Of a stretch of 64,000 nt of DNA, positions 14,686 to 63,002 are shown piece by piece (the stretch's first letter is position 1; each line of letters starts with the position of its first letter). This DNA is from a virus (taxonomy: Duplodnaviria > Caudoviricetes): the IMG/VR virus record IMGVR_UViG_3300030330_004956, positions 1 to 64,000 of that record. One strand, written 5' to 3'. A program made the position numbers and the translations under genes. Under the pieces are notes generated by a model. That model saw nothing but the letters and a program-made list of their open reading frames with translations. It was not told the origin of the DNA and made no database searches.

Positions 14686-16497
14686 ATGGCTAAATACGAT
14701 GATAAAAATAAAAAAGTACCCATCAGGTACACAAGTAGAGATTTTACCAGTATAAAAAATGATTTAGTAAGTTATGCCAAAAGGTACTATCCAGACACTT
14801 ATAAAGATTTCAACAAAGCTTCCTTTGGTTCTTTAATGTTCGACACTGTGGCATATACAGGTGACATCCTATCTTTTTACTTAGATTATCAAGCAAATGA
14901 GTCTTTTCTGGACACGGCGAATGAATATAACAATGTAGTTAAACTGACTAGACAAATGGGCTATAAATATAGAGGACGTCCATCTTCTTATGGCTTTTTA
15001 TCTTTCTATATCTTAGTGCCAGCCAACGATACTGGACTCGGCCCTGATACCGCATATGTTCCTATACTTAAAAGAAGGACAGAGGTAGCTTCCAAGTCAG
15101 GAGAAAATTTTATTTTGACAGAAGATGTAGATTTTAGAAAAGCTAATAATGAAATTGTTGTAGGTAGGACAAATTCAACTACCGGACTTCCAACTCATTA
15201 CATTATCAAAGCAACTGGAAGGGTAGTGTCTGGAAGACTAGTACAAAAGAATATAGAAATTGGAGCGTTCAAAAAATTCAATAAAATACTTTTGGGAGAT
15301 TCAAATGTTTCGGAAATATTAGAGTGCATAGATATAGAAGGGCATGAGTATTTTGAAGTAGAGCATTTGGCTCAAGACGTAATCTATCGCGATATAGATA
15401 ATTCAGATACCCTGACATCAGATGATACTCCAAAAATATTAAAACCAATGTCAGTGGCAAGAAGATTTGTTGTTGAAAGAGATCGTAGCGAAACATTTAT
15501 GCAGTTTGGGTACGGCTCCGAAGAGGATATAAAGATAGATAAAGTCATTGATCCCACAAATGTCATACTCGATCAATTTGCTAGAGATTATGTAACAAAT
15601 ACAGATTTCGATCCTTCTAATTTGCTGGGTAGTGATAAGTTTGGTGTCTCTCCAGTTAATACAACATTGAGGATAGTATACAGGGTTAATTCCAGTAACA
15701 ATCCAAACGCCGCCGTAGGTGCAGTTGACTCAGTTGTTAATTCAATATTTAGTTTTGAGAACCCAACGGTGCTCAACAGCGGTAAGTTATCATCAGTAAG
15801 AAACTCATTAGAATGTTCAAATGAAGATACAATCGTCGGACATGCGAATATACCTTCAACAGAAGAGTTAAAAATAAGATCAAAATCATTTTTTGCCACT
15901 CAAAATAGGGCTGTCACAAGAGAAGATTACAAATCTTTAATCTATAACATGCCTCCAAAGTTTGGTGCTGTAAAGCGTTGCGCAATCTTACAAGATCGCG
16001 ACTCTTTCAAAAGAAATTTGAACATATACGTCATATCAGAAAATTCAGCAGGAAATCTGACTCCTTCAAATGATGTGTTAAAGGCAAATATTAAAACATG
16101 GCTAAATCAATATCGCATGGTTAATGACACTCTGGACATAATGGATGCAAAGATAATTAACATAAAAATTAATTTTACCGTGGTAACCAAAGCCGGCTAC
16201 GACAAGTTTAGAGTTTTAGATCAGTGCTTGCGAGTTATGAGAGATAGATTCTCACGTCATTATGATATAGCAGAGCCATTTAGCTTCACAGAAGTATACT
16301 CCACACTAAACAGAATAGAGGGTGTTGCCGATACTGTAGACGTCACAATTACAAATGAAAACGGCGGTGCCTATTCTACAGCCGGCTTAAACATCAAAAA
16401 GTCAATTACTCCTGACGGCAGATGGATTGTCTGCCCTCTGAATTGCTTGTTTGAAGTTAAATTTCCGACAATTGATATCAAGGGAGGCGTCAAATAA
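14686..16497 (+). CDS. baseplate wedge subunit, T4 gp6-like
   Basis: YTSRDFTSIKNDL, AYTGDILSFYLD, ESFLDTA, QFG and QNRAVTREDY motifs; follows gp25. Confidence 0.9.
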   Translation: MAKYDDKNKKVPIRYTSRDFTSIKNDLVSYAKRYYPDTYKDFNKASFGSLMFDTVAYTGDILSFYLDYQANESFLDTANEYNNVVKLTRQMGYKYRGRPSSYGFLSFYILVPANDTGLGPDTAYVPILKRRTEVASKSGENFILTEDVDFRKANNEIVVGRTNSTTGLPTHYIIKATGRVVSGRLVQKNIEIGAFKKFNKILLGDSNVSEILECIDIEGHEYFEVEHLAQDVIYRDIDNSDTLTSDDTPKILKPMSVARRFVVERDRSETFMQFGYGSEEDIKIDKVIDPTNVILDQFARDYVTNTDFDPSNLLGSDKFGVSPVNTTLRIVYRVNSSNNPNAAVGAVDSVVNSIFSFENPTVLNSGKLSSVRNSLECSNEDTIVGHANIPSTEELKIRSKSFFATQNRAVTREDYKSLIYNMPPKFGAVKRCAILQDRDSFKRNLNIYVISENSAGNLTPSNDVLKANIKTWLNQYRMVNDTLDIMDAKIINIKINFTVVTKAGYDKFRVLDQCLRVMRDRFSRHYDIAEPFSFTEVYSTLNRIEGVADTVDVTITNENGGAYSTAGLNIKKSITPDGRWIVCPLNCLFEVKFPTIDIKGGVK

Positions 16498-17987
16498 TGG
16501 GAATCAAAAGATACGTAGCAATTGCTGATAATACAATTACAAACCAATTTAACGAAGCCTTGCAATCTAGAAACACCAAAGGTAACACCGGTTTGGCAGA
16601 TTCTCTGGAAATGTTCAAGATTTATGGGCAAGTTACAAGCGCCTCTGTAGAGCAGACTAGAATTTTAATAAAATTTCCTGTAAACGAAACTGATCTTAGA
16701 TCAGAAATTAGAACTATAAAACAAGATAGAGATGCTGGAATTCTGCCAGAATCAGGTTCTGTAAGTTTCTTCATGAAGATGTACGATGTAAAACACCCAG
16801 ATACCGTTCCTAATAATTTTAAATTAGTGGCACACCCTTTGACAAAAAATTGGACAGAAGGCAATGGAATTGATCTAGATGAATATTCAGACATAGGGCA
16901 ATCAAACTGGCTATCAGCTTCTACTGGCGTTGGATGGGCAACAGAGGGTGGAGATTTCTCTACAGCATCAGTTTTTCAGCAACAATTTGATACAGGCTTT
17001 GAGGATTTTGTTGTAGATATTAGCTCGTATGTTGAGCAAACAATAGCTGGAACACTAAATAGCGGAAACAATTATGGATTAATTGTTTTGTTTTCATCTA
17101 GTATTTTATCTGATTCAAATTCATATTACACGAAAAAGTTTTCAGCAAGATCCTCAGAATACTTTTTTAGTCGCCCTATAATCGAAGCACGTTGGGATTC
17201 TTCCATAAAAGACGATAGAAGAAACTTTTATTATAGTTCTTCTTTATGCCCCGCAGCAGACAACTTAAACACTCTTTATCTGTATAACAATATTGGAGGA
17301 AGACTCAAAAACATTCCTTCAGTTGGAACTGGAAGTATTTATGTAAACCTCTACCAGTCATCTGCATCTGCCCCTTCCGGCTCCGCTTTGACACTAGTGC
17401 AAGATGGGACTCACGTCCTTTCTGGCTCTCCAACAGTTGTTACAGGCGGGTATGTATCGACTGGTATTTACAGCTGCTCAGTAGCCGTAACAGGCACTGC
17501 TGATACACTACATGACGTTTGGTACAGCGGTTCCACACAATACCATACGGGTACATTATTCCCCGAAACTTTGTCTCTTGCAGAGACAACAAAAACTAAC
17601 GATTATTATGTCTCTTTGACGAATCTCAAAACTACTTATAGTAACACAGAAACTGCAAGAATTAGAATTTACTCTAGATTAAAAGGTTGGAGTCCAACTA
17701 TTTATACTAGAGCGGTTTCTGAGCCTCAACTCTACATTCCAACTTCGGGATCTTATGAAATTATTCGAATCATTGATAATTACAAGGTGGTGGAACATGC
17801 TACCGGCAGTGTCAAATTTACAGAACTATCATTTGATGGTTCAGGAAGCTACTTCGATCTTGATATGTCTATTCTTGAGCCGGGATATTCATATGGTATA
17901 AAATTAGCTTTTTATGATGATTATATTTCTGATTATAAACCAATTGACGAAGTATTTAGATTTAGAGTAGAGAAACATGAAACTTAA
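16497..17987 (+). CDS. virion structural protein with a DNRLRE/CBM96-like N-terminal domain
   Basis: RILIKF, AHPLTKNWTEG, DISSYV, NYGLIV, KKFSARSSE...RPIIEARWD pattern; lies between gp6 and the gp7-like gene. Confidence 0.6.
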   Translation: MGIKRYVAIADNTITNQFNEALQSRNTKGNTGLADSLEMFKIYGQVTSASVEQTRILIKFPVNETDLRSEIRTIKQDRDAGILPESGSVSFFMKMYDVKHPDTVPNNFKLVAHPLTKNWTEGNGIDLDEYSDIGQSNWLSASTGVGWATEGGDFSTASVFQQQFDTGFEDFVVDISSYVEQTIAGTLNSGNNYGLIVLFSSSILSDSNSYYTKKFSARSSEYFFSRPIIEARWDSSIKDDRRNFYYSSSLCPAADNLNTLYLYNNIGGRLKNIPSVGTGSIYVNLYQSSASAPSGSALTLVQDGTHVLSGSPTVVTGGYVSTGIYSCSVAVTGTADTLHDVWYSGSTQYHTGTLFPETLSLAETTKTNDYYVSLTNLKTTYSNTETARIRIYSRLKGWSPTIYTRAVSEPQLYIPTSGSYEIIRIIDNYKVVEHATGSVKFTELSFDGSGSYFDLDMSILEPGYSYGIKLAFYDDYISDYKPIDEVFRFRVEKHET

Positions 17988-20900
17988 AGATTTATTTAAA
18001 TCAACGAAAATTATACAATCTTCTAGCCTTGAGGATATGGCTCGCGAAATTGAATCGCAAGAGTACATTGAATCATTCACGAAAGATAAGCAAAGATTTT
18101 TACCCAATGTAGACTATAGCAAGCCAGCCAATTTTGCATATTTTGGCTCTGCCGAAAAGTACTACACAGATTCTTTTGTGAGGATTCGTAATACATACCC
18201 TTACGATGGCTCAGAAAGAGAAAAGTTTGATTGGCTTAATGAGTCAACTTTTATTGATCTGTATATATTTGATAACCGATACCCAAGATTCAACGGATTT
18301 GTAAACTTGGGATATCCATCGTGGGGTACGTTAAGTGGATCTTTGATCGATGGATACGGCAAATCAGATTCTGACGTATATATTAAAACGTTTGGCGGCC
18401 CACATAAGTCAGACTTAAAAACATTAAAAAAGCAGCATGAAGATGCAAACAAATACGACACTTCAAAAACAAGAGAATCAAACCTCAAATTTAAATTAGA
18501 AGACGGTGTAACAATTGAAATGTGGCTAAAAAAGCCAGCCTTCAATACCGCAAAAACAGAGAAAGAGGTTTTATTTGATTTGTGGAATGGCGAAGCCTCT
18601 AGCTCGGCGCAATACGGAAGACTCAGATTAGAACTCACCGGCGCCTCTAGTGGCTCTCCATTCCTATTAACAGCGCTTAGTGGAACAACAGGTAAGCAAA
18701 ATCAAATAATTGGGCAGAACATCACTACAGCCTCTATAACTGATTGGACTCATGTGGCTCTTACTATGAAAAATAGTACAACCGTAGCAACAGCAGTTGA
18801 CACAAATTTATATATTAATGGCGCTCTAAACAGAACTCAGACTATTTCTGGAATGGCTTTGAAAGAAGTTACCGGTTCGATGATATCTTACCTTGGAGCA
18901 TTGCAAACTGCACCCTCTGGCTCTCCTACAATCCAATCTGGCGCCGGAAAATTCTCAGGATCTATCGATGAGTTTAGATATTGGAAAACAGAAAGAACTT
19001 CAAAAGAAATCGGTAGACACTATTGGACTAATATTGGTGGTGGAACCAATACTGATCAAGCAAATACTAACTTGGGCGTATATTACAAGTTTAACGAAGG
19101 TATCACGGGCACTTCATCATTTGATTCGGTTGTGTTAGATTACTCTGGGCGCGTCTCAAATGGTACTTGGACGGGATACCAAGCAGGCGCAAGAAGTACA
19201 GACTCGGCAATAGTTTTGTCAAAAGCTAGTAAAACAGAATTTAAAGATCCCACAATTTATTCTAGTCACCCAACATACAAGCTTGTGTTGGATGAATTGG
19301 AAAAGAGCGGTTCTGTACACGATACTCGAAACAACTCGGCTCTATTCCATACAATGCCTGCATGGATAACTGAAGAAGATGACACCAAGCACGGAAATCT
19401 TAAAAACTTAACGCAGATCATGGGTAGTTACTTCGACAATCTTTATTTGCACATCCAAGAAATAAATTCTCTAAAAGATGTATATTCACATTTTCAAGCT
19501 AATGTAATTGATCAGCAAGATCTATATGCTTCCACTAGTATCACTGGTACTGTCAAGCCTCTTCCTTTTGCGGATCGCCTGCTAACCAATGCCGGCTTTG
19601 TAGCTCCGGAATTATTTGCAGACGCTACAGTTTTAGAGGCTTTGGCTACCAGAAGTGAAGATGAAAATTATGAAATGAAACTTCACAATGTGAAAAACCA
19701 AATTTATCAAAATGTGTACTCATGTATTTCTAACATATACAAACAGAAGGGCACTAATAAAAGTTTTAGGAACGTGTTGCACTCATTTGGAGTGGACGAG
19801 GACGTCGTAAAAATTAACTTTTATGGCGACAATGTAGATTTTGAAATAGAAGACAGACATAAAATTAGATCCAGCAAAGAAAAGTTTGTTAGCTTTAGTC
19901 ATCCAGATCGCTTTCACGGCACAGTCTATCAATATGCTTCTGGCTCTAGTTCATCTGGATTTATATCTGGCTCTGGAAAAGACTTTGAAAAATACATACC
20001 AGTAACTTTTGAGGTTCAAACTGTATTGCCAGATAAAATGCCGTTCAATGAGCCAAATGGATTTGCTACTCCTTTTGTAACATCTTCAATTGTTGGTATC
20101 CACGAAGCCAACGCCTCCACTCCTAGTAGCTATACAATCCCCGGTACTGATAGCTGCGGGCTTGATATATACACTGTAAGAGACGAACAGGAGTCAAAAC
20201 GAGTTAGATTCCATCTTTCTTCGTCAGCCCTTGGCGTACACCTTTCCTCGTCTTTGTATGACGAACAATATAAAAATAATCAGTGGCTATTGGCATTTAA
20301 GATCAGAAACGACAAAGCACCATCAGCAGACTTGGTACTTAGTTCGTCTTTAAATTCATCATATCTACTTGAGTTCGTAGGATACAACACCGTTGATAAG
20401 AGTCAAATACACACTTTTAGTTTAACAGCTAGCGTAGCCTCCGCATCAGCACACAGCTTTTTAAATTCTTCTAAAAGAATATACGCCGGCGCCCAACGTC
20501 AAAACTTTACAGGCTCCACTATGCAACAATTCTCTGATCATAATATAGGATTTGTAAGATACTGGATGAGTTATCTGGAAGATGAAACGCTTCAAGCACA
20601 CGCTTATGACAGTAAGAATTACGGCGCCGGCTCCCCATTTAGAAGTTCTTACTTGATGGAAGACTCGATTAATGATATTAAAATCCCAGAAATAGAAACT
20701 CTTTTACTCTCTTGGGATTTTGAAACGCTTTCAACTACCGATAGTTCTGGGCAATTTATAGTATTGGATACCACTAGTGGCTCTGCCGAAGCAAGATACT
20801 CTCCAACATTCCAGTCACTAAAGAGCAAATTTTATCATGGACGTGGTGACAAATTCCTGCCAAACGACGAAAAAGTGATCGACGCTAACCACATTTCTAT

Positions 20901-23900
20901 CGCCCGAGTAACATATCCAGAAATCTTGCAAGGCGATGATATGATAGAAATTAGATTGCAAGATGATGTTAAGTTTACAAAAAATACTTTACCACAAGAC
21001 TATTATATCGCATTTGAAAAATCGATGGCACAAACTGTATCTGAAGAGATGATTCGATACATGGCGTCTGTTAAAGACTTCAACAATCTTATTGGACGCC
21101 CAGTCAATCGCTATAGAATGGAATATAAAGACTTGTCTAAGTTAAGACAATTGTTTTTTGAGAAGATTAGAAACGAGCCAGATCTTGACAAGTATATTGA
21201 TTACTATAAGTGGCTCGATGACGCACTAGGTGAGATGCTTGTTGCTCTTGTTCCTGCGTCTCTTAAACATTCTGATGGAATCAATAATGTAATTGAAAAC
21301 TATATTTTTGCAAGAGATAAATACTTTAATAAATTCCCAACAATTGAGTTTAAGGCACCTACTCCAGAAGGCGGTATGAATACAATCAATCGCCACCTTT
21401 ATCCATGGAAAACGGGACATGCCCCAGTCGGTGGCTCACCAGAAAATGAAAATTGTTTTTGGTGGCTGAACCGCGCCGAACGCGATCGCCCCATCTTGTC
21501 TGGCTCTAATTCTGGCTCTAACCACTCCAGAGTAAAAGTTTTTCAAAATAGAAAATCTGTATTAGATCGTTCATTCACCACCGCGCAACATTTCGCAGTA
21601 GATAGAGGAAGAAGTCTGCATGGTGGGGTGAACTATGAAGATAACAAAAAGAGAGATTATGTCTGGAGTGCCACCAAAGAAGTGGCTGAATACCCGCTAC
21701 AGTACAATTTGTTTGGCGGATTCCCATTAAGATACATCTATACAAATAATGAAATGCTCATGGCGCTAAAAGATTGCACTGATGAGCGCCCTGCTCATGA
21801 AAAAATCAAAAGAGCATTCTTTGCAATAGACGGAATGGAGTCGTTTAGACATGCATATCTTAGTAGCTCTCGCGACGGCGTATTCAAGGGTGGCATGGTG
21901 ATGCCATTCAACATAATGTCGTCATCAGTCACCACTGGATATGCTGCTCAGTTAAGTGGCTCTGGTAATATAGGCGGTATCGACTTAGCAAACGTCCACT
22001 CTGACACAACGGACAATACCAATGCAATCCCCTTACAAGGCCCATTTACTGAAAGGTGGGTTGGAGGACACCAATCTCGTCATGCACCAGTTAACAGGGG
22101 AAGTGATGGCGAAGCAAGCAGAGGTGAGGGATACAAGATCCTTGTTAGTGATTTGTTAAATGAGAGTGGTGCCCTTGGTGTTGTTGGAGCAGATTATCCA
22201 GCGCCGTATTCAAACATGGTAGATGCACCACACTTTAGAGTCGATCAGGCAAAAGCTAGATATTATCGCGATGGCAGAGCAAAACGTCCATTAAATATTA
22301 AAAACATTAAAACTTCTGGATCTCAAGTAGGAAACTACCAGAAAAACTATCAATTTGTACATACGTTTGGCAGAGCACAACAACGATTGTGGATGAGAGA
22401 ACAATCAGTTACTATCCAAAGACATAATGCAATCAATAAAACAATGCCTACCACAACTCAAGAGACTGGTTTGTTCGCCCGCGGTACCGGCTCGGCGGGC
22501 AATACAATGTCCAACTTTCATTCTTCTAGCTTGTATTTAGGCGGTATAAATACTAGCACAAATGAGACAGTCAACACTGCTACAGATTCAGTCTTAGCTA
22601 CAAAATTCTCAGCCCCGGGCTCTTATGAAACAATGTCTGATATCTTCTTGGACTTATATGGACGAGAAAAATCTGTTTACAATGCGCTACCTTTCCGTAA
22701 TTTGACAGTCAGAGGCTCAGGCTCTGGCGAGTCAGGAACATTCCGACTTATAGACATCCATGGCAACAGATATGGACTCAGAACACACCTAACACGCCAC
22801 TCTGCTAGATTTGGTATTGATAGTGTGGTTGGCTCTGGAAAGCCATCATTCCATAAAGTAAACAGAAATGCCAAATGGGATGCATCAGAAGAGTCGTATG
22901 ATTATGATAACTATTGGCATCAACATCACATACCACAATCAGACTTTCAATACAAGTGGGTAAAGTTGTCTCACACTGCAACGCTAGCCACATCATCTAT
23001 GGCTGGGCATTTATTGTCTGATTTTTCAGAGCCATCTGGAACTACCGCGAGATATCCACATGAGCATATAAGCTATGCTGTTCCAAGTCAAAGTGTTGTT
23101 AACAGAAGAAGAGACACGATGACTGCATATGGATATCCTAGTTGGGAACAAGTAAGAAATAACGATACCCCAGAAAACAACAAATTAAAAAAATCTTATG
23201 GATATAATATCTTCAACAGAATTACGCTACCTGCCAATGCAGCGCACCCACACCCATCAGGAAATTTCCTTGACATAACAGGCTCTAGAGAAGAGTCTAG
23301 AGTTACGGCAAACATTCCCAATAAAGTCGATTTGGCTTACAAAAAGAGTAGATTTGAATTTATATATCCATATGTGAACATGAGATATCATTTTAGTAAT
23401 CAATATTTTCATTACTTGAACGTGAATCCAAATGCTAATGAAACAATGTATGAAACTTTTTATTCTTACTACTCGAATAACGCAAACCGTACAGAAGATA
23501 ACACAGGATTTTCTGTGATTAGACACAAAATTAGGCAAAACGTTTTCCCACAATACATCAAACATACGAAGTTCAATGTAAGACACAGGCACTTTTACAC
23601 TTCACACTTTTGGGCAGATGGTGAAAATAAACTATACAATACGGACACTAGCGAAACTGGATCCTATCATAGACTTGATGAGATCGGACGTAGGCAAACC
23701 AACGTTACTGCCTCTCTGTTTAAGACTGAAAACTTAAATACAATAACAAAGTTAAATATTTCAGCCGCACCTCCAGTTATGACTAACATAATCCCATCTC
23801 AGTCAATTTGGAGTATGGATTCTAGAACAAACTTTACATCTTCAAGTCCTCAGATCGGTGCATCCAACTCTGCCGGCGCCCCCGGAGTCTTGCAAAATCA

Positions 23901-26900
23901 AGATCACCATTTCCATAACAACACAAGCAAAGCAGTATTATTACAATCTGGATCCGCCGCATCAGGCTCTTTCCAAATGTCAGGTGCTACAGTGCCCGGC
24001 ACGAAAGCAACCGGCTCGTTTACTGTTAGAGGAATTATACCAGTTGGAAATAAAGCAACCGGTAGTTTCCAAGTAACTAGTTCAAATGTTCAAGGTACAT
24101 CTGGACAAGTAATATTCCAAGCGCAGCCTGCAAACGTAGCTGCTGTAAGCGCCTCGTATCAGTTCAGAGTAAAGGGCAGGGAAATACCGGGACAATTTGC
24201 TAAAGCTAGATTTGAGGTTTCTGGAGCATTTTTCACTGGTTCTGCGAGTAGTGGTAGTTTTGTGTTTGACAAAGATATTCCCCTAGGTGGAAGGCGATCA
24301 TATGTAATCGCCAGAATTTCAACCAACACATCTAGACAGGGTGATTTACTAAAGCTAAACCGCCGATTCGAATCTGATCATTCGTTTTTGTTTAATCCAC
24401 AAGGGTTTACCGACTTTCCAGCCAACACTTCCTCGCTTATGCCTACCAATCCTCGTCGATCGATATGCTTAAGCGGTTCTGAATTTATTGGTGTCACGTT
24501 GCCAACCACCGGCCCGGGCTCAGGACTTTCCGGCGTAGGTACGAACAAGATACAGCCTAGAATTTTTTCAATGTATACTAAGATTACAAACAGTTCGTTA
24601 TTACATGCTACTAATAAGAAATACTTAGTATACCTATACGATGCCGTTAACGGTAATCCTGTTTTAGAGTTATATTATAATAGTGGATCCGGCGGCGGAA
24701 ATCCAACATCATATGATCTTGTTATGAGAGAGTATAGACTCTCAGGATCATCTTTAGGCTTTACACAATTAACATGGGCTGGAGTGGGAGGCTCAACTTC
24801 ATGGAGAAACTTTACAATTTTCACTGATCCTTCTTCGATCACCGGCGGCGGACAAATTGGACATACAGCTTTGTATATTGATGGAACTAAGTTTGGTACC
24901 GCACCTACCCTCGACACCAGCGGCATGGCGGGAATGGGCAGCGCAACCAGTATGGTATACAACGAGCCTACAACAATGTACATTGCTGGCGCACCAAATT
25001 CACTCATATCCGGCGATCATCGATGGACTGCCGAAATTTGTATTGATTCGTTCGTACAGTGGGGAAGCTCGTCATATCACCCAGATATTGTTGCCACCCA
25101 AGGAACGAAACAACTCAACTTTGTGACAGCAATATATAACGGCGGAACATTAGAGCCGCATTATAGTAACACTGGTAGCGCACATATTACTCAATATTAT
25201 GACTTTGGACAAGGAAGAAAAGGCACAAGTACTAGTCTTGCTTTTTGTGACGATATCAAGTGGCCCGGAAGATTCTTCAATCTGGATCCGTCATCATCTC
25301 CAATAGGCTTAAACAATGCAAAGATATCTACTGGTTCTCTTTTTAATCATATTGTAGTCGGTGATGGCTTAGATCCGCAGCACTCCACAGCCGCTTGGGT
25401 AGGAACTTCTGGAAGTAACATTCACAACAAAAAAGCTAGATTTCGTACTGGAAAATTTGTGGATCCAAAAACGGAGCAAGATTGGAGAGATCACATCGTA
25501 GCAACAATTTCATCGGTGCAGTCCAACGATACGTTTTTTGATATAGAAGCTCGCGTCCAAGAAGAAACAGCATCTTCTAACATGTCTACGACATGGTATA
25601 AAAGGACATCCGGTTCTTTTGCCGCAGATCCTTTAGCTACATACACCTCCGGTAACGGAGGCATTTCCACCGGCGATACCATTGGATCTGTATTACTTTA
25701 TGTGGTTTCGAAACAACAAAGTATCGGCAATGATTATCAGTTAGATACGTGTTTCGGCGTCAATGCACAATCAGGACAACTTAGAAGTGTACTTGCTTTA
25801 TCATCCAGTACCACTTCCAATGCTCCCGTTCAAGACGGCACCGTAATACATGACACTGGAATTAGCATCGGTGGAACTAGTATATTCTTGGATCACCACA
25901 GTAGTTCTCAAACGCCGGCAAACTGTGTACGTACTTGGACAACTCTTAATAAATCTTTCGCTATGTCATCCACCAGTGGATTTAGATTAAAAAACGATTA
26001 TCCCGTCAACGGGCTATTGAACAACATGCAAGACAGCACCATGTCATGGTGGTACGCTAAAGATGGTGACAATACAGGCTCCGGACATATGGCATTCGCA
26101 ATTCAATTTGATGCTGCATGTAATCCATCGGCAGGACAAGGCGGCTATCATTTCTTCTACGGCGGATCCGCAATAAACATTAAAGTATTCGCATCTAACA
26201 CAGTACACAGAAGAGTACAAGTTACATATGCCAATATTGCCGCTCAGGGTGGACAATTGGCGAACTTCAATGTAGATGATTTTAACCACTATGCTATTCT
26301 GTTTGATGCTAGTACTTTCGATGATAATAATGGTACTGCCGGCTTCAAACTTTATGTTAATGGGGTAGAATATACTGGAACCTATTCATACAGTAGCACC
26401 GGCACTTCTTTTGGCGGAAGAGGGCAAAATTTGCTTTCACTAGCCTTAATGAATGGTATAACACATAACAACTATAGAATGTATGGCAGGTTTACTCAAT
26501 TTGCTGCTCACAGAACTCTTCTCACCGCCGCCCAAGTTAGGGAATTGTACTCCGGTGGTAGGCATGATGAGGTACAGCCTGTAGATCCCAAAAATCTGGC
26601 TCATTACTACCCCCTTAACAATATTCAAGATGGTGTTAATGCAGCTTCTGTTAATGACACTTTGACTACTGCTGGCATCGCCCACGTACTGGACAAAACC
26701 CTGAATAGCGCCCGAAGCGCCTGTAATCTTACTGTAAATGGTGCTAATGGCATTAGACTTCGAAATGGCATACCGAGCAACAATAGAAGCACAACCGTAA
26801 TAAAAAATGCGCTCGAAGAAACAATATCAAATGTAGTTACCAATTTTACAGCTAGTCGAAGTGGAGATAGGTTCACGATTATTTCAACAACCGCCAACTC

Positions 26901-33713: not shown

Positions 33714-34727
33714 ATGACATTTTTTGATAAAAAAGAAGAAGTATTAGAGATTAAACTTAGTTCCCATGGGAAACAAAAATTAGCAGCCGGCACTTTTAAG
33801 CCAGTTTATTATGCTTTTTTCGATGATGATGTGCTATATGATGGCGCCCGAGGTGGCATCACAGAAGATAATAATAATATTGAGCCAAGGATCCAAGAAA
33901 ATACACCCTCCACAAGAGTACAAACGAGCTTTGTAGATTTAGAGGAATTAGTCATGAGACAAACCCATGACTTAACAGCGGCTGGAGTGTATCACGAATC
34001 GAATGTTTCCGACTTAAAATTGGATCCAACGGTGTTTAAGGATTACGATGGATTAAGAAATGTTTTGCCGTTAGGAAATTCTCAACTAGGAAATAGAAAT
34101 GTAGCCTCTTGGAGAGTTGAGTTTTTAGAAGGAAATTTTCATACTTCCAAGGCTTTGATAAATGACGACTTGGAAAAGAAACCAATCGTCAATATACCAC
34201 AAATTGAATCTAATCTTACCGTACAGCCTTTTTTGGTAGAAAAAGATTTTACAGGAGTCGTCGATCCGGAAACAGGTAGATATGTTGTGTTAAACAGCGA
34301 GAACAATCATTTTATAAGATTGGAAAATGATTATATATTACTAGACGTCTCAGAAGCAAATGTAGATTTGTTAAATGATTCTTTTACGTTAGAAATTTAT
34401 GAAGTAAAAACAGAAGATGGTAAAGAGGTTTTATCTCCAAAATTATTTAAAAAAGAGGTACAACAAGTTGTAAATGACTTGCTGATCGATCCCGATGAAC
34501 TTATGCAACAAATAAACTCTTTCAATGTTCCGATAGATTCAAATTTTGCAGAATATTATTTTTCTATAGCAAAAGATGATGAAATCGATGGTAAAACTAA
34601 ATTTGACAAAATAGTATCCAGAGAATCCAAGGGCAACTTGTACGATAACACTGTTGGATATGAAGAGTTCACACAAAAGCCCGGCGGAGAGCTATATACT
34701 TCTGATAATGATGGAGATAATTGTTAA
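33714..34727 (+). CDS. baseplate protein with the N-half of a DUF3751/gp8-like module
   Basis: MTFFD...LSSHGKQKLAAGTFKPVYYAFFDDDVLY parallels the N-terminus of 39592-40494; AGGAGG SD. Confidence 0.6.
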   Translation: MTFFDKKEEVLEIKLSSHGKQKLAAGTFKPVYYAFFDDDVLYDGARGGITEDNNNIEPRIQENTPSTRVQTSFVDLEELVMRQTHDLTAAGVYHESNVSDLKLDPTVFKDYDGLRNVLPLGNSQLGNRNVASWRVEFLEGNFHTSKALINDDLEKKPIVNIPQIESNLTVQPFLVEKDFTGVVDPETGRYVVLNSENNHFIRLENDYILLDVSEANVDLLNDSFTLEIYEVKTEDGKEVLSPKLFKKEVQQVVNDLLIDPDELMQQINSFNVPIDSNFAEYYFSIAKDDEIDGKTKFDKIVSRESKGNLYDNTVGYEEFTQKPGGELYTSDNDGDNC

Positions 34728-37618: not shown

Positions 37619-37626
37619 CCTATTTA
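37619..37626 (+). promoter_or_regulatory. putative late promoter variant CCTATTTA
   Basis: Lies in the short intergenic gap before 37644. Confidence 0.5.
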
Positions 37627-37643
37627 CTGAAAAGGACAATATA

Positions 37644-51628: not shown

Positions 51629-51631
51629 GAT

Positions 51632-54962: not shown

Positions 54963-54970
54963 GAGTAAAA

Positions 54971-55406: not shown

Positions 55407-55407
55407 T

Positions 55408-55461: not shown

Positions 55462-55463
55462 CT

Positions 55464-56513: not shown

Positions 56514-56546
56514 TTGATAATTATAAAGGAATAGAGGAATTAAATA

Positions 56547-57023
56547 ATGTCTTTAACAACATCACAGCATATCTATTCTTCCAGAGGAAGAACGAGACAA
56601 CCAAAAAATTTATACAAGCCATACCACGAATCGGTAGCAATCGCAAAAGCTAGTGGATCAGTTACCATAGTTTCAGCAGCCAATAAACTAAGTGACACTT
56701 TAGATACTGGCTCGGCTGGCGGAAATGGGTACGACACTCAAAACCAAGATAATTTACATTTATGTATCCGCACAACTGGCTCATCAACCGGCTCATTTCA
56801 AGTATATGCATATAATAGAAGTTTCGGAACTTGGGGATTATTAAAAGTGCCCGTAGCAATCGGAGCATCAGCAAAAACAGAAGCCGCATATGTACCAGTT
56901 GAATTTACAGGTTCAGCCTCAACTACGGAGTATGTGGTGGTTCCAATTCATGGTATTGACAGGGTAGCCTTTGTTGGCACACCAGAAGACACTATTCTCT
57001 ATGCCGCCGGCAGCACACTATAA
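56547..57023 (+). CDS. putative virion surface protein
   Basis: 158-aa beta-rich, S/T/G-rich ORF with GAGG SD. Confidence 0.6.
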   Translation: MSLTTSQHIYSSRGRTRQPKNLYKPYHESVAIAKASGSVTIVSAANKLSDTLDTGSAGGNGYDTQNQDNLHLCIRTTGSSTGSFQVYAYNRSFGTWGLLKVPVAIGASAKTEAAYVPVEFTGSASTTEYVVVPIHGIDRVAFVGTPEDTILYAAGSTL

Positions 57024-57034
57024 TAGGATTTTAA

Positions 57035-57247: not shown

Positions 57248-57255
57248 ACTATTTA
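57248..57255 (+). promoter_or_regulatory. putative late promoter ACTATTTA inside an 11-bp inverted repeat
   Basis: Immediately after the bS21 stop, 39 nt before ATG 57287. Confidence 0.65.
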
Positions 57256-57286
57256 TTTCTGAAAAGTATAAATGAGGAAATAGTTC

Positions 57287-58111
57287 ATGTCAAATACTAA
57301 AAATTATGGTTGGGCATATGTCCACCCAACTGCTTCTCAGGCACAAGCCAGAGGCGTAGACAAATCAATTCAATTTTTAACTGGTGCAGTTGACTCAAAT
57401 GGTATTGGACTCGGCTCTGGTTCAGCCAAACTAACATTTGATTACGCACCCGCAACCCCAGTGCTAAGGCTAAGTGGAAACATGACAGCCAGTGGACACG
57501 TTTCAGCATCTGCGTTTTTTGGAGATGGCACTGGTTTGGAAGGGGTATCTTCTTTTCCATTTAATGGGAATGCCGTGATCAATGGAAACTTAAATGTAAC
57601 TGGCTCTATCACGGCTTCTAACTATATTATACAAAACACTCTAGAGTTGAACAATGCTGGCTCATCACAGTTTGGTAATACTGCTGGCGATACTCATGTA
57701 TTTTCCGGATCCGTTTCGGTACATTCTGGCACATTCACTATACTGAGTGGAAACGTACCAAGTGTTAGGTACAACAACTTAACAGAGCAACTTAAGATTG
57801 TTTCATTACGCGTAGGTTACAAGCCAGTAGCTGCCACAACTTACACAGCCAGTGTGAGTGATTATATCATAGGCGTTCAGAACACTAATGCTGTTACGAT
57901 TAGACTTCCGAATGCCGCAACGGCTGGATCGGGCTCTATTTTGGTTATCAAAGACGAGGTAGGAAACCCTAGAGCCAACCCAGATGAAATAACCGTTTCT
58001 GCAAGTGCTGGACAAACTGTTGATGGTGCTGCCCATAATACACTTGGTGTTGGTACATTGGTGTCTGCAAAATTGTTCTCAAATGGTAATACGAAATGGT
58101 TTATAATTTAA
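57287..58111 (+). CDS. fibre-like virion protein
   Basis: Beta-helix repeats (GNMTASGHVSAS, GNLNVTGSITA), FFGDGTGL, and a C-terminal DYII...TIRLP...VIKDE...IDG-like...SNG..W module. Confidence 0.7.
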   Translation: MSNTKNYGWAYVHPTASQAQARGVDKSIQFLTGAVDSNGIGLGSGSAKLTFDYAPATPVLRLSGNMTASGHVSASAFFGDGTGLEGVSSFPFNGNAVINGNLNVTGSITASNYIIQNTLELNNAGSSQFGNTAGDTHVFSGSVSVHSGTFTILSGNVPSVRYNNLTEQLKIVSLRVGYKPVAATTYTASVSDYIIGVQNTNAVTIRLPNAATAGSGSILVIKDEVGNPRANPDEITVSASAGQTVDGAAHNTLGVGTLVSAKLFSNGNTKWFII

Positions 58112-58120
58112 GGTGGTTTT

Positions 58121-61100
58121 ATGTCTTACAACACTCTCAGCGGTACAATTCAAGGCCCAAACAAGATAATAGCAAAAAAAGATGGCACTTTCACACAAAT
58201 AACAGGATCGGTATCCGGTTCATTTGTTAATGCAAGTGGCACATTAGTTTCTTTTGCTTCAATTGGTACTGTTGGGGGATCCGGCGGAGCAATCGGAGAA
58301 TCCGAAGATGGCTCATATGCAGATGGACTTTTCACAGATTTTACAACTGGCACCATGGTTGGCGTTGTGCTGGACAGATACAACGAAATATTTAAATCTC
58401 TAGTCCCACCACCAGCGCCAAATCTTAGCAGAGCATTTACTGCACAAGACGGAACTGATGTGCGCTTATCTTTCGGTGCATCTAATGATATGGAGTCTGA
58501 TGGCACTCCATATTATTCTGTAACCACATCAGCAGGCGGTACCGCCGTGGACAAAGGTGAATTATATGGAACCCAGACTTTTGGAAACAATTTTAGAATA
58601 GCAGCATTCCAAGGTACCACTGCGATCACCGGCGTCATCAATGATCAAGTCACTGCTTCAGTCTTGGGTTCGTACACAAATTATGTTGCTAATGCTTTCG
58701 GCAACGCCAACACCGGCACATTAGCTCTTTACATTAATAGCACTTCATCCGCAGCACATACTTTAAATTTAGCCACAGCAACAGGGACAGGGAACCCGGG
58801 CTCTGGTAATAGCTCATCGCTGAATGCAGACGGGAGCGGCTTTATAAAGGTGTCAATAGCTAAAAATGCAACCGATGCCAACAATAATAGTTTTGATATC
58901 TTTAAACACAGGACTGCAAACTTTGTTGTAAATCCTGCATCGCAGAGAATGGGATGGAATTATGCATATGTTAAACACACTGTTGGATCCGCAAATTATA
59001 CATCCAACTTTATTGAATGGGTTAATGATGCAAACGCCGTTACCCCAACCATAACCAGCCAAGCAATTACGGGAATTACTTTAAATGGCTCAAGGTATTT
59101 ATCAGGAGTGCAGTACAATTTAAGCGCGTCAGCAGATTATTCTTTTTTGATATCGCATTTTTATAAAAATGTCTATCTCAATGCAAGTGTCATTTGCGTC
59201 GATCTCAATGGTAGAGCTACTATTACCGACACAACTATGCCGCACATAGGAGCCGACGATGAAAATAAAACAGTTGCCCTTACACAATCATTGGAAACCA
59301 ATGTGCCTACAATTTTAAATGCCACTGTTGGCGCCCAAGCATCTGTAAGTCATATTTTCAAAGGAACGGCGAATGCAAATACGAGCGTATCCGGGTTTTT
59401 AATTTATACGCCCACGAGTAATAATCCTACTAACACTGTAGAATACTTTAGAAACGAAAAATACAGATTACCTTCCGGCTCACACGACGCTCAGGGAACA
59501 ATCGCAACGAGTAGCTGGACAAGCGCAACCCATATGACTGGCTCCGGTACACACGCAGACGGGCTAATTATTTACAACGAAGCTCTCAGATCACCAAAAC
59601 AGGGAGCAAACGGAGGAAACTTTGCAGCAATTGCAAACACAGAATCTGGTAATCCGGATTACTCTTCTGTGACTGGTGTGAGAACATTTTACAGAGCATT
59701 TAAAAATACTGGCGCCGCCAAGCAAGATGTTTCCATAACAATCAACGGCACCGGAACAATTGTTTCAAACGGCGCTGAATTAGGAGCCAATAATAAGATT
59801 AGAGTTCTGGTTAAAACACCCGGCAAAACTGGATGGATGAATTTGGCAGACGCATATAGTCATCCTAACTTATCTGACGGTGCTGGCGCCAGAGAGACTA
59901 ATTTTGATTCTTCCTTAAACGCTACAAATATTGTTACTTTGGGCGCAAAAGCGGTTGCAACTAATGAATGGTTTTTGGTTAAAATTGAAGCGCATGCAAA
60001 CTGGACAGGAAATATATCCCAAATCTCTGTAACTTTTGGCGCTGGTACTGGAGGAATTACCAATCCCTCAAATTTGAGCCAGCTAGATGAAACAATGGCA
60101 AACAATGGCTCCAATGCTGATTTATCTTTTGGAGCCAGCAAGCCAATCGCTGGTTATACATCTGCTACAGGCACTCCTAGCATCAATGGTGCTGTAGATC
60201 TCAACGGATTATGGGAGCCAAACACTGGATTTGATAACCAGAGGTTGGGCGTTTATGATAAAACATTTAATATAACTGGAAAGTTAAATTCTGTCATCAC
60301 ATCTGCTAGACTTTCCGATGCGCATACTGGTTCATTGGAATTATACATCAATGGCGCTTTACGACACACAGTAAACTTAAACTCTTATGGCGACGGTAAC
60401 ACACTAAACTCTTCTGGTTCAGGCTTCCAAAGCTTATCTGCTGTCAAGTATCCGAAATTCGGAAATCAAGTTAGCGATTATACTAAGCCATACAGAACAG
60501 GATCTGTGATAGTAGATGCTGATGATCAGCGAGACGGCTGGAATTTTGCCAGAGTGAAACATAGCGGTACTTTTGGGGAAAGAACTTCAACATACATTGA
60601 GTGGATGAACGATAGTAATGCCTCTACCATTTCTGTCGCCGGCGGTAACATTTCCAATTTTAATAATTCTAATGTCTTTTATAGTTCTGGCATCAAAAGT
60701 TTCAGAAATCCACCGACTGCATCTTTTACTTTAACTTCTTCTAATAATTATCTAAACACTTATGACGGAGATCCCGCTAATGCAATAGACTTCAATGATA
60801 GTTTGACAAATGTGACAATATCTGCAATGACTGCCTCCGGCGCCGGTATCAATGATTTGACAGATTCGAATGGAGTATCAGGATATCCCACTCTAAACAC
60901 TACAACTAATTCACAAACTGCTAGTGTAAATTACAATTTAACTTTATCTTTTACTCCTAGCTTTTCTTTGGTAGGCGCCTTCGTAGGTGGCGCAGCAATT
61001 CACACTGCCAGTATTGGCTCCGCTAAGTTCCTACAGCCACCGGTGAATGGCAACAACAATACTTATTCTACATTCACAACTTCTGATTTTACTAGTTTTT

Positions 61101-61852
61101 CTAAAGCCGGCTTCTTGGTTTTTAGTGGCTCTGGGCTAACTACCAATTCTTCATCCATTGAAGCGTTTACTAGTGAAGAGTTTAGATTACAAAACAAAGG
61201 TAAAACATACGACGCACAAACAGATACAACAGCCTCAGAAAATAAGTGGAATGCTCAATACTCAGTAAATGATGGCACCTATCCATCACACCAAGATGGC
61301 TTGGTGGTTTTTGGAGAAAAGCTACTTGCACCCCCAAAAGCAGGAGTTAGTGGTGATTGTAGAAACATAGCAGACGGCGGCACACTTCAGGCACCATCTG
61401 GAAACCCAAATTATGCTTTATCCGGCTTGACGGACGCTACGAGAACATATGTTAGATTCTTCAAAAACACCACAGGCGGAGACAAAACTAATATTCAAAT
61501 ACAAATTTACGGTTCTGGTACTTTAGATGATCTCGGCGCATCGTATGCCAATGGTAACTTTAAATTAGAATACAAATTCCCAAGCTCAGATGCCAGCGTA
61601 AATACTGCATGGCTTGATGCTGGAAAGAATTCTCAAAGCGGAAACAAAAATGTTGACGGTGAAGGTGGAGTTACGGGCGTTGGCTCAGGTTATTTTCCAT
61701 TAACTATTAGCGCAGAAGGAACAACTATTGGCGCATCACCTAATTATGTTACCTTGTTGGGTGGCGCATGGGAAAATAATAAGTACTTATTAATTAGAGT
61801 AAGAGCCAGTGCCAGTTGGAATGGGTGGATAAGTAGAATAGAGGTAACATAA
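58121..61852 (+). CDS. large virion protein with an internal tandem duplication
   Basis: Two homologous ~550-600 aa halves sharing LSFGAS, LYIN, QRxGWN(Y/F)AxVKH, IEWxND, HxDGL, GNPxY, RTxxRxFKN. Confidence 0.75.
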   Translation: MSYNTLSGTIQGPNKIIAKKDGTFTQITGSVSGSFVNASGTLVSFASIGTVGGSGGAIGESEDGSYADGLFTDFTTGTMVGVVLDRYNEIFKSLVPPPAPNLSRAFTAQDGTDVRLSFGASNDMESDGTPYYSVTTSAGGTAVDKGELYGTQTFGNNFRIAAFQGTTAITGVINDQVTASVLGSYTNYVANAFGNANTGTLALYINSTSSAAHTLNLATATGTGNPGSGNSSSLNADGSGFIKVSIAKNATDANNNSFDIFKHRTANFVVNPASQRMGWNYAYVKHTVGSANYTSNFIEWVNDANAVTPTITSQAITGITLNGSRYLSGVQYNLSASADYSFLISHFYKNVYLNASVICVDLNGRATITDTTMPHIGADDENKTVALTQSLETNVPTILNATVGAQASVSHIFKGTANANTSVSGFLIYTPTSNNPTNTVEYFRNEKYRLPSGSHDAQGTIATSSWTSATHMTGSGTHADGLIIYNEALRSPKQGANGGNFAAIANTESGNPDYSSVTGVRTFYRAFKNTGAAKQDVSITINGTGTIVSNGAELGANNKIRVLVKTPGKTGWMNLADAYSHPNLSDGAGARETNFDSSLNATNIVTLGAKAVATNEWFLVKIEAHANWTGNISQISVTFGAGTGGITNPSNLSQLDETMANNGSNADLSFGASKPIAGYTSATGTPSINGAVDLNGLWEPNTGFDNQRLGVYDKTFNITGKLNSVITSARLSDAHTGSLELYINGALRHTVNLNSYGDGNTLNSSGSGFQSLSAVKYPKFGNQVSDYTKPYRTGSVIVDADDQRDGWNFARVKHSGTFGERTSTYIEWMNDSNASTISVAGGNISNFNNSNVFYSSGIKSFRNPPTASFTLTSSNNYLNTYDGDPANAIDFNDSLTNVTISAMTASGAGINDLTDSNGVSGYPTLNTTTNSQTASVNYNLTLSFTPSFSLVGAFVGGAAIHTASIGSAKFLQPPVNGNNNTYSTFTTSDFTSFSKAGFLVFSGSGLTTNSSSIEAFTSEEFRLQNKGKTYDAQTDTTASENKWNAQYSVNDGTYPSHQDGLVVFGEKLLAPPKAGVSGDCRNIADGGTLQAPSGNPNYALSGLTDATRTYVRFFKNTTGGDKTNIQIQIYGSGTLDDLGASYANGNFKLEYKFPSSDASVNTAWLDAGKNSQSGNKNVDGEGGVTGVGSGYFPLTISAEGTTIGASPNYVTLLGGAWENNKYLLIRVRASASWNGWISRIEVT

Positions 61853-61853
61853 C

Positions 61854-63002
61854 ATGGCAAACACCAATCAAGCGCAAACTATATCCGCTTTCAAAAGATT
61901 GGCTGGTAGAGCTAATACCTCCGCCGCCAAAGCCTACTATGAAGAGAACATACCATCTGCACTACAAACCACAACCACTACTGTATTTGCTGATACCGTG
62001 CCACAATCTGCCGCTGGCATATCTTCTTCGGCAGACTTTGCTTCTAGATATGCAATCTTTACAGGAAGTTCTGGCAACAATGTAATGGAGTTGGTTCCTT
62101 TTGTTGTGGAGACTATCGGCGGTACCCTGTATGACGACGATCAGTTATCAGATCGCGGTGGTGAAGGATCTCAAAACTCAGGATATCATGGCTATCAATT
62201 AAAATTACCATCGGACTATGAATCAAAATCTAATAACCCTGCTGCTGGCACTGGAGTTTTTGTAAATAATCAAGTAGTTCATGCATCGAATGGGTTGTTA
62301 CAGCTTGTCGGGCCGACACTCGCCCCAAATACACGCCCAAAGTTAAACATGTCTATATGGACAAATACTGGTACTTTTTCGTCCTCAACTGCGGCAAGCT
62401 ATACAGGAGTCCCAGCTACAGATCCTATTGATTGGGTTCCGGACTACTTTAATGGAACTATCTTTATGCAAGATTTTGATTCCACTAAAGTGCCCACAAT
62501 TGCAATGGGGTACGTTTACATTGGCAAAATGGCTGGAACTGCAATTTCAGACGCAGCTAATTCTGGCTCTGGGCAGCAGATCACAATTAAAGATGAAGGC
62601 ACGAACAGGACTACAAATTTATCTTCTATAGACTTTGTTGGTGCCGGAATTACTGCCACAACTGTTGGAGACAACGTAACTGTCACAGTTCCCGGTGTAG
62701 CCGGAATGGGAGGTGTCACATACGGAAGAACAGTCGCCGCCGCTAACATGACTTCTTCAGCATCTGATAAAATAATAGGCGTAACCGCTACTGCCTCTAT
62801 TGAAATTAGACTCGCCGCTGCAAGTACATTGTCTGTAGGGCAATATGTTACGATCAAAAAAGAAGTGAGTTCTTCTAATATTATTACGATTTCTGCGTCT
62901 GGATCAAACAAAATTGATGGAGTTGGGAATATAAAACTTGAGTCTCCCTTCGCTGCTGTAAATCTATACTCAGATGGTACTGGCAGCTACTTTGTTTATT
63001 AG
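61854..63002 (+). CDS. fibre-like virion protein sharing a C-terminal module with 57287-58111
   Basis: DW.PDYFNG, ITIKDEG...IDFVGAGITAT and C-terminal DKIIGV...EIRL...TIKKE...IDG...LYSDG. Confidence 0.7.
   Translation: MANTNQAQTISAFKRLAGRANTSAAKAYYEENIPSALQTTTTTVFADTVPQSAAGISSSADFASRYAIFTGSSGNNVMELVPFVVETIGGTLYDDDQLSDRGGEGSQNSGYHGYQLKLPSDYESKSNNPAAGTGVFVNNQVVHASNGLLQLVGPTLAPNTRPKLNMSIWTNTGTFSSSTAASYTGVPATDPIDWVPDYFNGTIFMQDFDSTKVPTIAMGYVYIGKMAGTAISDAANSGSGQQITIKDEGTNRTTNLSSIDFVGAGITATTVGDNVTVTVPGVAGMGGVTYGRTVAAANMTSSASDKIIGVTATASIEIRLAAASTLSVGQYVTIKKEVSSSNIITISASGSNKIDGVGNIKLESPFAAVNLYSDGTGSYFVY

Follow-up and report, generated by a model that had tools for sequence, protein, structure and literature searches.

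Why a subset of the virion proteins of one phage should be crowded with the same short polar tripeptide is the question raised by the 64,000-nucleotide stretch analysed here (hereafter the window), the opening 64 kb of one viral contig 184,889 bp long (IMG/VR record IMGVR_UViG_3300030330_004956; CheckV completeness 98%). The tripeptide, hereafter the motif, is Ser/Thr-Gly/Ala/Ser-Ser, written [ST][GAS]S, and its statistics were pooled over eight proteins of the virion module. The source is an uncultured marine T4-like phage whose + strand carries nearly all genes; its portal protein resembles T4 gp20, and its closest relatives in culture, at about 40% identity, are Flavobacterium phage vB_FspM_immuto and Microcystis phage Mel-JY01 (hereafter immuto and Mel-JY01). 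An earlier inspection of the same DNA (the original prediction) had proposed that the motif is a sequon for a phage-encoded modification, forming a glycan shield on exposed virion surfaces. To our knowledge, phage-encoded virion glycosylation has so far been established only in some mycobacteriophages.

By examining the statistics of the motif, its distribution among related and unrelated phages, its conservation and location within proteins, and the sugar genes at the far end of the contig, we tentatively hypothesize that the motif is an acceptor site for cytoplasmic O-glycosylation by a glycosyltransferase (GT) cassette belonging to this phage clade. Of the readings considered, this plausible one is the most likely; it is chemically unproven.

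Enrichment and polarity of the motif

The motif-rich proteins, for which Pfam and PHROG searches gave no family, are listed below with window coordinates, length in amino acids (aa), and observed and expected motif counts.

16497-17987, + strand: 496-aa protein beside the gp6-like gene (the T4 gp7 position); 14 motifs against 3.5 expected (counts, shuffles)
17977-33702, + strand: 5241-aa giant baseplate/fibre protein (the giant), with Laminin_G_3 at residues 171-345; 88 motifs against about 30 expected, T-x-S 37 against S-x-T 11
40510-41610, + strand: 366-aa protein with orthologs in immuto and Mel-JY01; 8 motifs against 2.2 expected (counts, shuffles)
42230-43402, + strand: 390-aa protein, a weak paralog of the 366-aa protein; 10 motifs against 2.7 expected; promoter-like TGAATA-N16-CGTA at 42189
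56547-57023, + strand: 158-aa protein; 6 motifs against 1.1 expected; a homolog lies upstream of the gp9/10-like gene in most related loci
57287-58111, + strand: 274-aa protein, predicted to be a gp9/gp10-like protein of the baseplate periphery; 10 motifs against 2.0 expected, 9 of the 10 sites conserved (alignment, AlphaFold, Foldseek)
58121-61852, + strand: 1243-aa fibre-like protein; 21 motifs against 9.9 expected; orthologs of about 1240 aa in related loci are enriched too (20-34 against 10-15)
61854-63002, + strand: 382-aa protein with a C-terminal domain paralogous to the one in the 274-aa protein; 11 motifs against 3.3 expected (counts, shuffles)

Together these proteins hold 168 motifs, where shuffles that preserve local composition predict 56.1 +/- 7.1. 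The controls comprised shuffles of whole proteins and shuffles inside blocks of 10, 15 or 20 residues; every scheme leaves an excess (z 3.0 to 10.9 per protein), and the enrichment proposed at the outset persists in composition-preserving shuffles of each protein. In a scan of all 8,000 tripeptides over the eight proteins, SGS (45 against 10.3 expected), TGS (37 against 8.9), TAS (23 against 7.3) and SSS (32 against 12.1) were among the very top; the remaining 48,010 residues of the genome showed no comparable tripeptide excess. The hand counts of the original prediction proved exact for the 496-aa protein (14), the first 950 aa of the giant (22), and the 366-aa (8), 390-aa (10), 158-aa (6) and 274-aa (10) proteins, and none was found on recounting the terminase, portal, primase, gp6-like, gp25-like and protease proteins; for SbcCD the low count stands but the figure does not, two motifs being present rather than about one.

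The motif is also directional. Pooled, T-x-S outnumbers S-x-T by 73 to 24 (binomial p = 6e-7), with the same sign in seven of the eight proteins, whereas ordinary proteins of the same genome lean the opposite way (34 against 53). The orientation counts given earlier hold, namely TAS 10 against SAT 2 in the giant and 4 against 0 in the 274-aa protein, as does the balance of TGS and SGT in the 1243-aa protein (4 against 5). At the middle position Gly is raised 3.3-fold, Ala 1.9-fold and Ser 1.3-fold; Val, Leu and Phe stay near 1.0-1.1-fold and Ile reaches 1.5-fold. Since only Gly, Ala and, weakly, Ser are raised, the pattern is not the ordinary polar/apolar alternation of beta strands, and such generic alternation, which cyanophage controls do show (Val, Ile, Leu and Phe), was rejected on this profile. 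The hydrophobic residue said to precede the motif is real (Leu 2.7-fold at position -1) but not one-sided, as aliphatic residues are enriched about 1.7-fold at +1.

Codon use within the motif matches the background and includes both the TCN and AGY serine codons, which places the signal at the level of protein rather than DNA. A DNA-level cause was rejected on these grounds; a genome-wide ban on GACC/GGTC, moreover, removes only GGG-TCN and cannot yield an excess. The same ban (GGA-CCN, GGT-CCN and GGG-TCN being forbidden) accounts for two side observations: the Gly-Pro dipeptide is depleted in the non-rich proteome (30 against 111 expected), and the Gly of the motif is never encoded by GGG. 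Inflation of the giant's count by internal repeats was likewise rejected, a BLASTP self-search having given no matches; as only two weak paralog pairs occur among the eight proteins, the counts are largely independent.

Distribution among related and control phages

Relatives were found by an alignment-based IMG/VR search with the family of the 274-aa protein, a single-sequence query having given none. The search returned 316 relatives, and 27 loci were analysed. In these loci the gp9/10-like homolog, even at 29-34% identity, still has 6-14 motifs within a length of about 230 aa, and enrichment extends to its neighbours; the terminase, portal, protease and other core genes hold 0-3 motifs, near expectation. 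The trait is clade-wide, extending over hundreds of uncultured marine relatives and the cultured immuto and Mel-JY01, and in outer tail, baseplate, sheath and capsid proteins the motif stands at three to five times chance level. In immuto, a 1053-aa tail spike (NC_055915 97658-100819) has 60 motifs against 22 expected (z 9.7; T-x-S 29, S-x-T 3), and the 17 motifs of a 373-aa protein (135075-136196) compare with 3.4 expected. Mel-JY01 has eight enriched open reading frames (ORFs), and its densest structural protein (PP395634 3065-4591, 508 aa) has 24 motifs against 6.6 expected. Directly after that gene, at 4750-8430, lies a 1227-aa 'methyltransferase FkbM' with a GT4 domain.

Some rich proteins are orthologous across this phage, immuto and Mel-JY01. 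The densest ones (here the 158-, 274-, 1243- and 382-aa proteins; in immuto the tail spike and the 373-aa protein) have no detectable homolog in other clade genomes, and the presence of the motif in such lineage-specific proteins suggests a common reader acting in trans. The earlier statement that the motif crosses unrelated folds holds only in part, since some rich proteins are weak paralogs or clade orthologs.

Phages outside the clade behave differently. T4 gp9, gp10 and all T4 fibre, baseplate, sheath and capsid proteins carry the motif at expectation and without polarity. Among Ser/Thr/Gly/Ala-rich proteins the ratio of observed to expected motifs is 1.19 in S-PM2, 1.11 in Syn9 (no outlier ORF) and 1.49 in HTVC008M (one borderline ORF); proteins of the same kind, taken without selection, reach 2.56 in this genome and include eight outliers. 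T-x-S is below S-x-T in all three of these phages, and GT4 genes are absent from all three. T4, S-PM2 and Syn9 (with the single borderline ORF in HTVC008M) led us to reject the idea that T4-type fibres, or proteins of the gp9/gp10 fold, carry such an excess generically.

Conservation of sites in two protein families

About 50 full-length orthologs of the 274-aa protein were recovered from marine metagenomes, of which 32 were aligned (58% mean column identity). Nine of its ten sites are kept in 20-32 of the 32 sequences; the Ser at the third position is invariant or nearly so at seven sites, and site 67 varies within the motif class (TAS, TSS, TGS, SAS or SSS). The family of the 496-aa protein has more than 4,100 metagenomic homologs, and the 104 orthologs analysed average 9.0 forward motifs each, where permuted tripeptides number 2-3, with T-x-S exceeding S-x-T by 294 to 59. 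Seven motif columns are kept in at least 50% of these orthologs, and substitutions again stay within the class (at site 48, SSS, TSS, SAS or SGS). In both ortholog families the alignments show selection on the motif class; and the free exchange of Gly, Ala and Ser at single sites speaks against a tight turn dependent on Gly.

An AlphaFold model of the 274-aa protein has a confident C-terminal beta-sandwich and an N-terminal half of low confidence. Foldseek matched the C-terminal domain to the N-terminal part of CBA120 TSP4 (E = 5e-6), a T4 baseplate chain (5iv5_AC, E = 3e-3, 104 columns at 3.0 A), T4 gp9 (1qex, E = 1e-2) and T4 gp10 (2fl8, E = 9e-2), and the domain is thus predicted to share the gp9/gp10-type fold. 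Sequence searches of the PDB with the family profile of the 274-aa protein and with the 1243-aa protein gave no match.

Location in the sheath and capsid

All ten motifs of the 976-aa sheath protein fall in residues 124-614, and residues 121-672 contain 10 against 4.1 expected (p = 0.002). The C-terminal core that can be aligned with T4 contains none, although with only 0.7 expected this core is uninformative alone. Going by the structure of T4 gp18, we take the T4-alignable part to be the inner core and the middle domains to face outward.

The major capsid protein (gene at 67824-69611 of the genome, outside the window) has all six of its motifs in residues 244-318, none in the T4-alignable core, and 6 against 1.9 expected in a variable block at residues 173-324 (p = 0.006). 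Alignment of 13 capsid proteins of the clade revealed that this block is hypervariable (26% mean pairwise identity) between near-invariant flanks, which suggests strong diversifying pressure on one surface patch of the capsid. Over the 13 phages the block holds 49 motifs against 14.8 expected, on 26 different columns of which none is occupied in more than 5 of the 13; motif density persists in the block while its positions turn over. An AlphaFold model built from the same alignment has a mean predicted local distance difference test score (pLDDT) of only 39. The C-terminus of the capsid protein of this phage reads EEGSS, outside the motif.

In both sheath and capsid the enrichment is limited to lineage-specific stretches, at places that in T4 face outward. 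Taken with its flanks, the motif is a short hydrophobic-[S/T]-[G/A/S]-S-hydrophobic element on parts of the virion that probably face outward: the fibres, the baseplate periphery, the variable capsid block and the outer domains of the sheath.

A conserved glycosyltransferase cassette

The original prediction had pointed to a sugar C-methyltransferase at the start of the window and had proposed a search for GTs upstream of the window, and both are present. The far end of the contig encodes a PD-(D/E)XK nuclease, two GTs (GT4a and GT4b), a GDP-mannose 4,6-dehydratase-like protein, a GT2, RmlC-, RmlB- and RmlD-like proteins, a PseF-like protein and two unknowns; GT4a, GT4b, GT2 and a deoxyhexose pathway occupy 175.8-184.3 kb of the contig. 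If the permuted genome closes, the C-methyltransferase would lie directly after this cluster.

Contig 175835-177157: GT4a, 440 aa; Glycos_transf_1 (PF00534), 47.8 bits against a cut-off of 26.4
Contig 177109-178443: GT4b, 444 aa; Glycos_transf_1 (PF00534), 31.0 bits against a cut-off of 26.4
Window 166-1341, + strand: C-methyltransferase of the type acting on nucleoside diphosphate (NDP)-hexoses, the last gene of the glycan cluster wrapping the contig ends; Pfam Methyltransf_13 (Zn-binding), Methyltransf_23 and Methyltransf_14 (C-terminal domain)

Both GT4a (EGFGLATLE at 308) and GT4b (EGFGLPLYE at 296) have the E-x7-E signature, which is kept in the orthologs of immuto, Mel-JY01 and Rhodothermus phage RM378, and both are predicted to be retaining GTs of the CAZy GT4 type with a GT-B fold. 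Pfam scans of the two detected only GT1-type families, and no DUF1975. The match of the PseF-like cytidylyltransferase (77 bits) is far under the family cut-off of 205.7.

The order nuclease, GT4a, GT4b, GT2, followed by variable sugar genes, is the same in this phage, immuto and Mel-JY01, and the adjacent GT4 pair recurs in three 100%-complete uncultured relatives and one 70%-complete relative; the three complete ones have the GT2 as well. GT4b homologs were found nowhere else among 50,697 phage records, and in the ESM Atlas its clusters are viral only, some relatives being fused to a GT2 domain (656-698 aa). GT4a occurs also in an uncultured 484-kb phage and in RM378, more weakly in a few siphoviruses, and weakly matches chlorovirus B736L (3oy2, E = 4.6e-6). 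Motif and cassette occur together in all near-complete clade members examined. The hosts of the clade span three phyla (Bacteroidota, Cyanobacteria, Rhodothermus), which argues for an acceptor borne by the phage and makes a host-specific one unlikely.

A promoter-like sequence, TGAATA-N15/16-CGTA, has 51 copies in the genome, mostly in the replication block at 89-147 kb; it is also found 5' of the motif-rich 390-aa gene (window 42189) and of the nuclease-GT4a-GT4b operon, with genome copies at 175031 and 182426. The T4-type late promoter TATAAATA is under-represented in the genome (6 against 14 expected) and unused by the phage.

Comparison with known glycosylation systems

In mycobacteriophages (Che8 and relatives), phage GTs are reported to glycosylate the C-termini of capsid and tail-tube subunits, giving a glycan shield (Freeman et al. 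2023, as cited in PMC12619734, PMC11256854 and PMC13445384). The Che8 capsid protein (5051-5872) ends in NKTGS and the major tail protein (7613-8422) in YSDGS, both within C-terminal regions for which glycans are reported. Phage-encoded GTs and the T-G-S and S-D-G-S ends of Che8 are close to what is seen here. The differences are that Che8 is an actinobacterial siphovirus with glycans reported there at the C-termini of two proteins, whereas here the candidate sites are internal, many per protein and in many proteins of a T4-like myovirus clade.

Another parallel is offered by the serine-rich repeat protein (SRRP) adhesins, in which Ser alternates with Ala, Val or Thr and which are glycosylated in the cytoplasm by a conserved pair of GTs and variable further GTs; GtfA and GtfB of this pair bind each other and the acceptor through DUF1975, and GtfB has been described as a chaperone-like partner (PMC6973325). 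Shared features are an adjacent conserved GT4-type pair with variable further GTs (in this phage, immuto and Mel-JY01, with the pair in the four uncultured relatives), an acceptor in which Ser alternates with a small residue, and cytoplasmic O-glycosylation, a candidate process here. By contrast, the phage pair lacks DUF1975, both GT4a and GT4b keep the catalytic E-x7-E signature where a GtfB-like partner would be non-catalytic, the acceptors are scattered over folded outer domains instead of lying in extended disordered repeats, and an accessory Sec system is absent; the cassette is an analogue of the GtfA/GtfB system and not a member of it.

Two further likenesses exist. Chloroviruses and mimiviruses (PMC9614988, PMC5408694) have their own GTs and sugar-nucleotide pathways, use deoxy or methylated sugars and decorate structural proteins; they differ in infecting eukaryotes, and the link is the weak family-level resemblance of GT4a only. 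Flagellin O-glycosylation, for example by the FlmG system of Caulobacter (PMC7591256), is likewise cytoplasmic and directed at a polymerising structural protein, and the cluster here has a PseF-like cytidylyltransferase, a type of enzyme that activates nonulosonic acids; it differs in that the PseF-like match here is weak, and Maf and FlmG homologs were not found, no search aimed at them having been made.

Glycan acceptor or structural element

Several lines of evidence favour a reader in trans: the same polar, Gly/Ala-centred tripeptide recurs in unrelated outer proteins with class-conserving substitutions, homologous T4 folds are free of it, and its density is kept in the hypervariable capsid block. 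The virus-only trio of GT4a, GT4b and GT2 with its variable tailoring genes, mirroring the logic of the SRRP system, makes the cassette the most plausible such reader. From this combination we infer that protein is the substrate of the GTs and the motif their recognition site, and that they may produce a protective or adhesive glycan coat. Under the proposed mechanism, GT4a and GT4b would start the chain by adding one or more sugars to the first Ser/Thr and/or the near-invariant Ser at position three; GT2, which some relatives have fused to GT4b, would lengthen it; and lineage-specific enzymes would supply the outer sugars, here putatively the GDP-mannose 4,6-dehydratase, the RmlB/C/D-like enzymes, the sugar C-methyltransferase and the PseF-like cytidylyltransferase. 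The full proposal, that a virus-specific GT4a-GT4b-GT2 system recognises hydrophobic-[S/T]-[G/A/S]-S-hydrophobic and, throughout an abundant aquatic T4-like clade, covers capsid, sheath, baseplate and fibres with lineage-variable glycans, is advanced a shade more cautiously than the acceptor role itself. The statistical and comparative case is strong; the functional claim is unproven.

The main rival makes a joint claim, which we consider unlikely although clearly the most serious of the alternatives: the motif would be a purely structural, unmodified unit at strand edges or turns, its two hydroxyls pointing outward and its small residue inward, which is passed on together with the beta-rich outer domains and fibre shafts that use it, and the GT cassette would serve another purpose, such as a host envelope glycan, glycolipid or polysaccharide. 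A number of observations count for it, several of them also against glycosylation. In the 274-aa and 496-aa families the excess lies entirely at conserved columns, sporadic motifs being no commoner than composition-matched permutations; the site turnover looked for there was not found and is present only in the capsid variable block, and the picture of a shield of freely placed sites is not supported in these two families. The hydrophobic residues on both flanks look structural, and the three motifs in the confident domain of the 274-aa model sit at strand/loop boundaries. The immuto tail spike consists of SGSF/TASY/GDGSxLTGI units repeating at short period, and several rich proteins are clade orthologs or paralogs. 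Non-virion ORFs do not avoid the motif (59 against 66.7 expected over 41,006 residues, p(low) = 0.19), so that avoidance as support for a trans-acting enzyme was not found. Finally, a milder excess (1.5-2-fold) occurs in some fibres of phages without the GT pair, namely a 2001-aa ORF of HTVC008M (24 against 12.3) and an S-CBS4 tail fibre (19 against 12.5).

Two side observations concern the repeats. The GDGSxL shaft element was rejected as the main source of the motif in this phage, where it has one copy; and the C-terminal half of the immuto tail spike (residues ~820-960) contains about ten 'YSHAEG'-type units, separate from the N-terminal SGSF/TASY repeats.

Further points against the glycosylation hypothesis concern its genetic association. 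Co-occurrence of motif and cassette is confined to one clade and amounts to a single phylogenetic event. Pontimonas phage phiPsal1, TJE1 and Synechococcus phage S-CBS4, whose GT4a-like genes are about 22% identical, show no motif excess, and co-occurrence in independent lineages through such distant genes was accordingly not obtained. The operon of the nuclease, GT4a and GT4b bears the promoter-like motif of a non-structural gene class, and sugar gene clusters of marine phages can have other targets. The reversed-motif control has two sides: polarity is found in tail and baseplate proteins but not in the capsid variable block, where the reversed motif is equally enriched (47 against 14.9). Above all, the glycan on Ser/Thr is a prediction for every clade member, resting on sequence. 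Most of the checks suggested with the original prediction favoured it, and its phage-encoded sequon is supported in part, by enrichment, polarity and GT genes, and weakened by fixed sites, lack of avoidance, restriction to one clade and GT4a-like phages without the motif.

Two of the phages just named, both unrelated siphoviruses, carry GT4/methyltransferase/GT2 cassettes inside their head-morphogenesis modules, in phiPsal1 at 5764-9351 between the capsid and neck genes and in S-CBS4 at 9916-12282 between the portal and protease genes; the virion proteins of both lack a motif excess.

What inclines us towards glycosylation rather than structure alone is that a structural unit does not readily explain why a degenerate polar tripeptide recurs in proteins without detectable homology, is kept in the hypervariable capsid block without positional conservation, is missing from homologous T4 folds, and tolerates exchange of Gly, Ala and Ser at single sites. 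Beta alternation would raise Val, Ile, Leu and Phe at the middle position, of which only Ile is raised here, and the structural account leaves a conserved virus-only GT trio, common to three host phyla, without an acceptor. The two readings are compatible, as a strand-edge element could be what the enzyme recognises.

Other alternatives

A trans-acting reader other than the GT cassette, working by phosphorylation or acylation or as an assembly chaperone for outer virion proteins, would fit the recurrence in unrelated proteins, the class-conserving substitutions and the density in the variable block, which do not identify the reader; it is improbable, as no candidate enzyme tracks the motif and the cassette is the only clade-conserved modifying system identified.

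That the cassette glycosylates phage DNA, as in the T-even phages, with the peptide motif unrelated, is less probable again. Phage GTs often modify DNA (PMC12619734), and the GT operon shares its promoter-like motif with the replication gene class. Immuto, however, carries the orthologous cassette, and only dA, dC, dT and fdPreQ1 were detected in its virion DNA by liquid chromatography with ultraviolet and tandem mass-spectrometric detection (LC-UV-MS/MS; PMC10516641); the genome studied here has no gene of the PF00303 (thymidylate-synthase/hydroxymethylase) family. DNA is thus an unlikely acceptor. A Tet/JBP search of the genome was negative, with an uninformative control.

A compositional artefact of low-complexity Ser/Thr/Gly/Ala-rich patches would fit the 33-44% share of these four residues in the rich proteins, but is refuted for practical purposes, as shuffles in 10-residue blocks still give z 3.0 to 9.8, tripeptides with the motif's residues in another order show no enrichment in the 274-aa and 496-aa families, and equally rich S-PM2 and Syn9 proteins give ratios of 1.1-1.2.

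Significance

In the literature searched, no acceptor of the [S/T]-G-S type and no glycosylated T4-like virion is described. If the motif is indeed glycosylated by the cassette, it would give phages their first defined sequon for O-glycosylation of protein in the cytoplasm and would make this the first T4-like virion known to be glycosylated. Members of the clade number in the thousands in marine and freshwater metagenomes, with hosts at least in Bacteroidota and Cyanobacteria, and a sugar coat would then be shared generally by the virions of a very abundant aquatic phage group, with a bearing on the avoidance of non-host adsorption, proteases, grazers and host surface defences, and on how fibre surfaces set host range. 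For glyco-engineering of proteins in the bacterial cytoplasm, a compact cassette of three GTs together with its short, defined sequon would be a useful tool as well. A direct test is possible: immuto and Mel-JY01, both in culture, have the cassette as well as virion proteins of extreme motif density.

Other features of the window

The baseplate module consists of the gp25-like and gp6-like genes followed by those of the 496-aa protein and the giant. The remainder of the window includes a recombination/packaging block, head genes, and a distal block of orphans (the 158-, 274-, 1243- and 382-aa proteins) with a tail fibre gene.

14284-14664, + strand: gp25-like baseplate wedge subunit; 0 motifs (PHROG 261/43)
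14686-16497, + strand: gp6-like baseplate wedge subunit; 0 motifs against 1.3 expected (PHROG 219/10646/6)
63077-64000 (to 64783 in the genome), + strand: tail fibre protein with a mild excess, 7 motifs against 3.9 expected (PHROG tail fiber families)

Three large ORFs (337, 965 and 630 aa) follow the giant at 33714-39536; they have no family match, lack the motif and are low in Ser/Thr/Gly/Ala, the 965-aa ORF having 0 motifs against 2.7 expected. Should they form part of the virion, they probably lie away from its surface.

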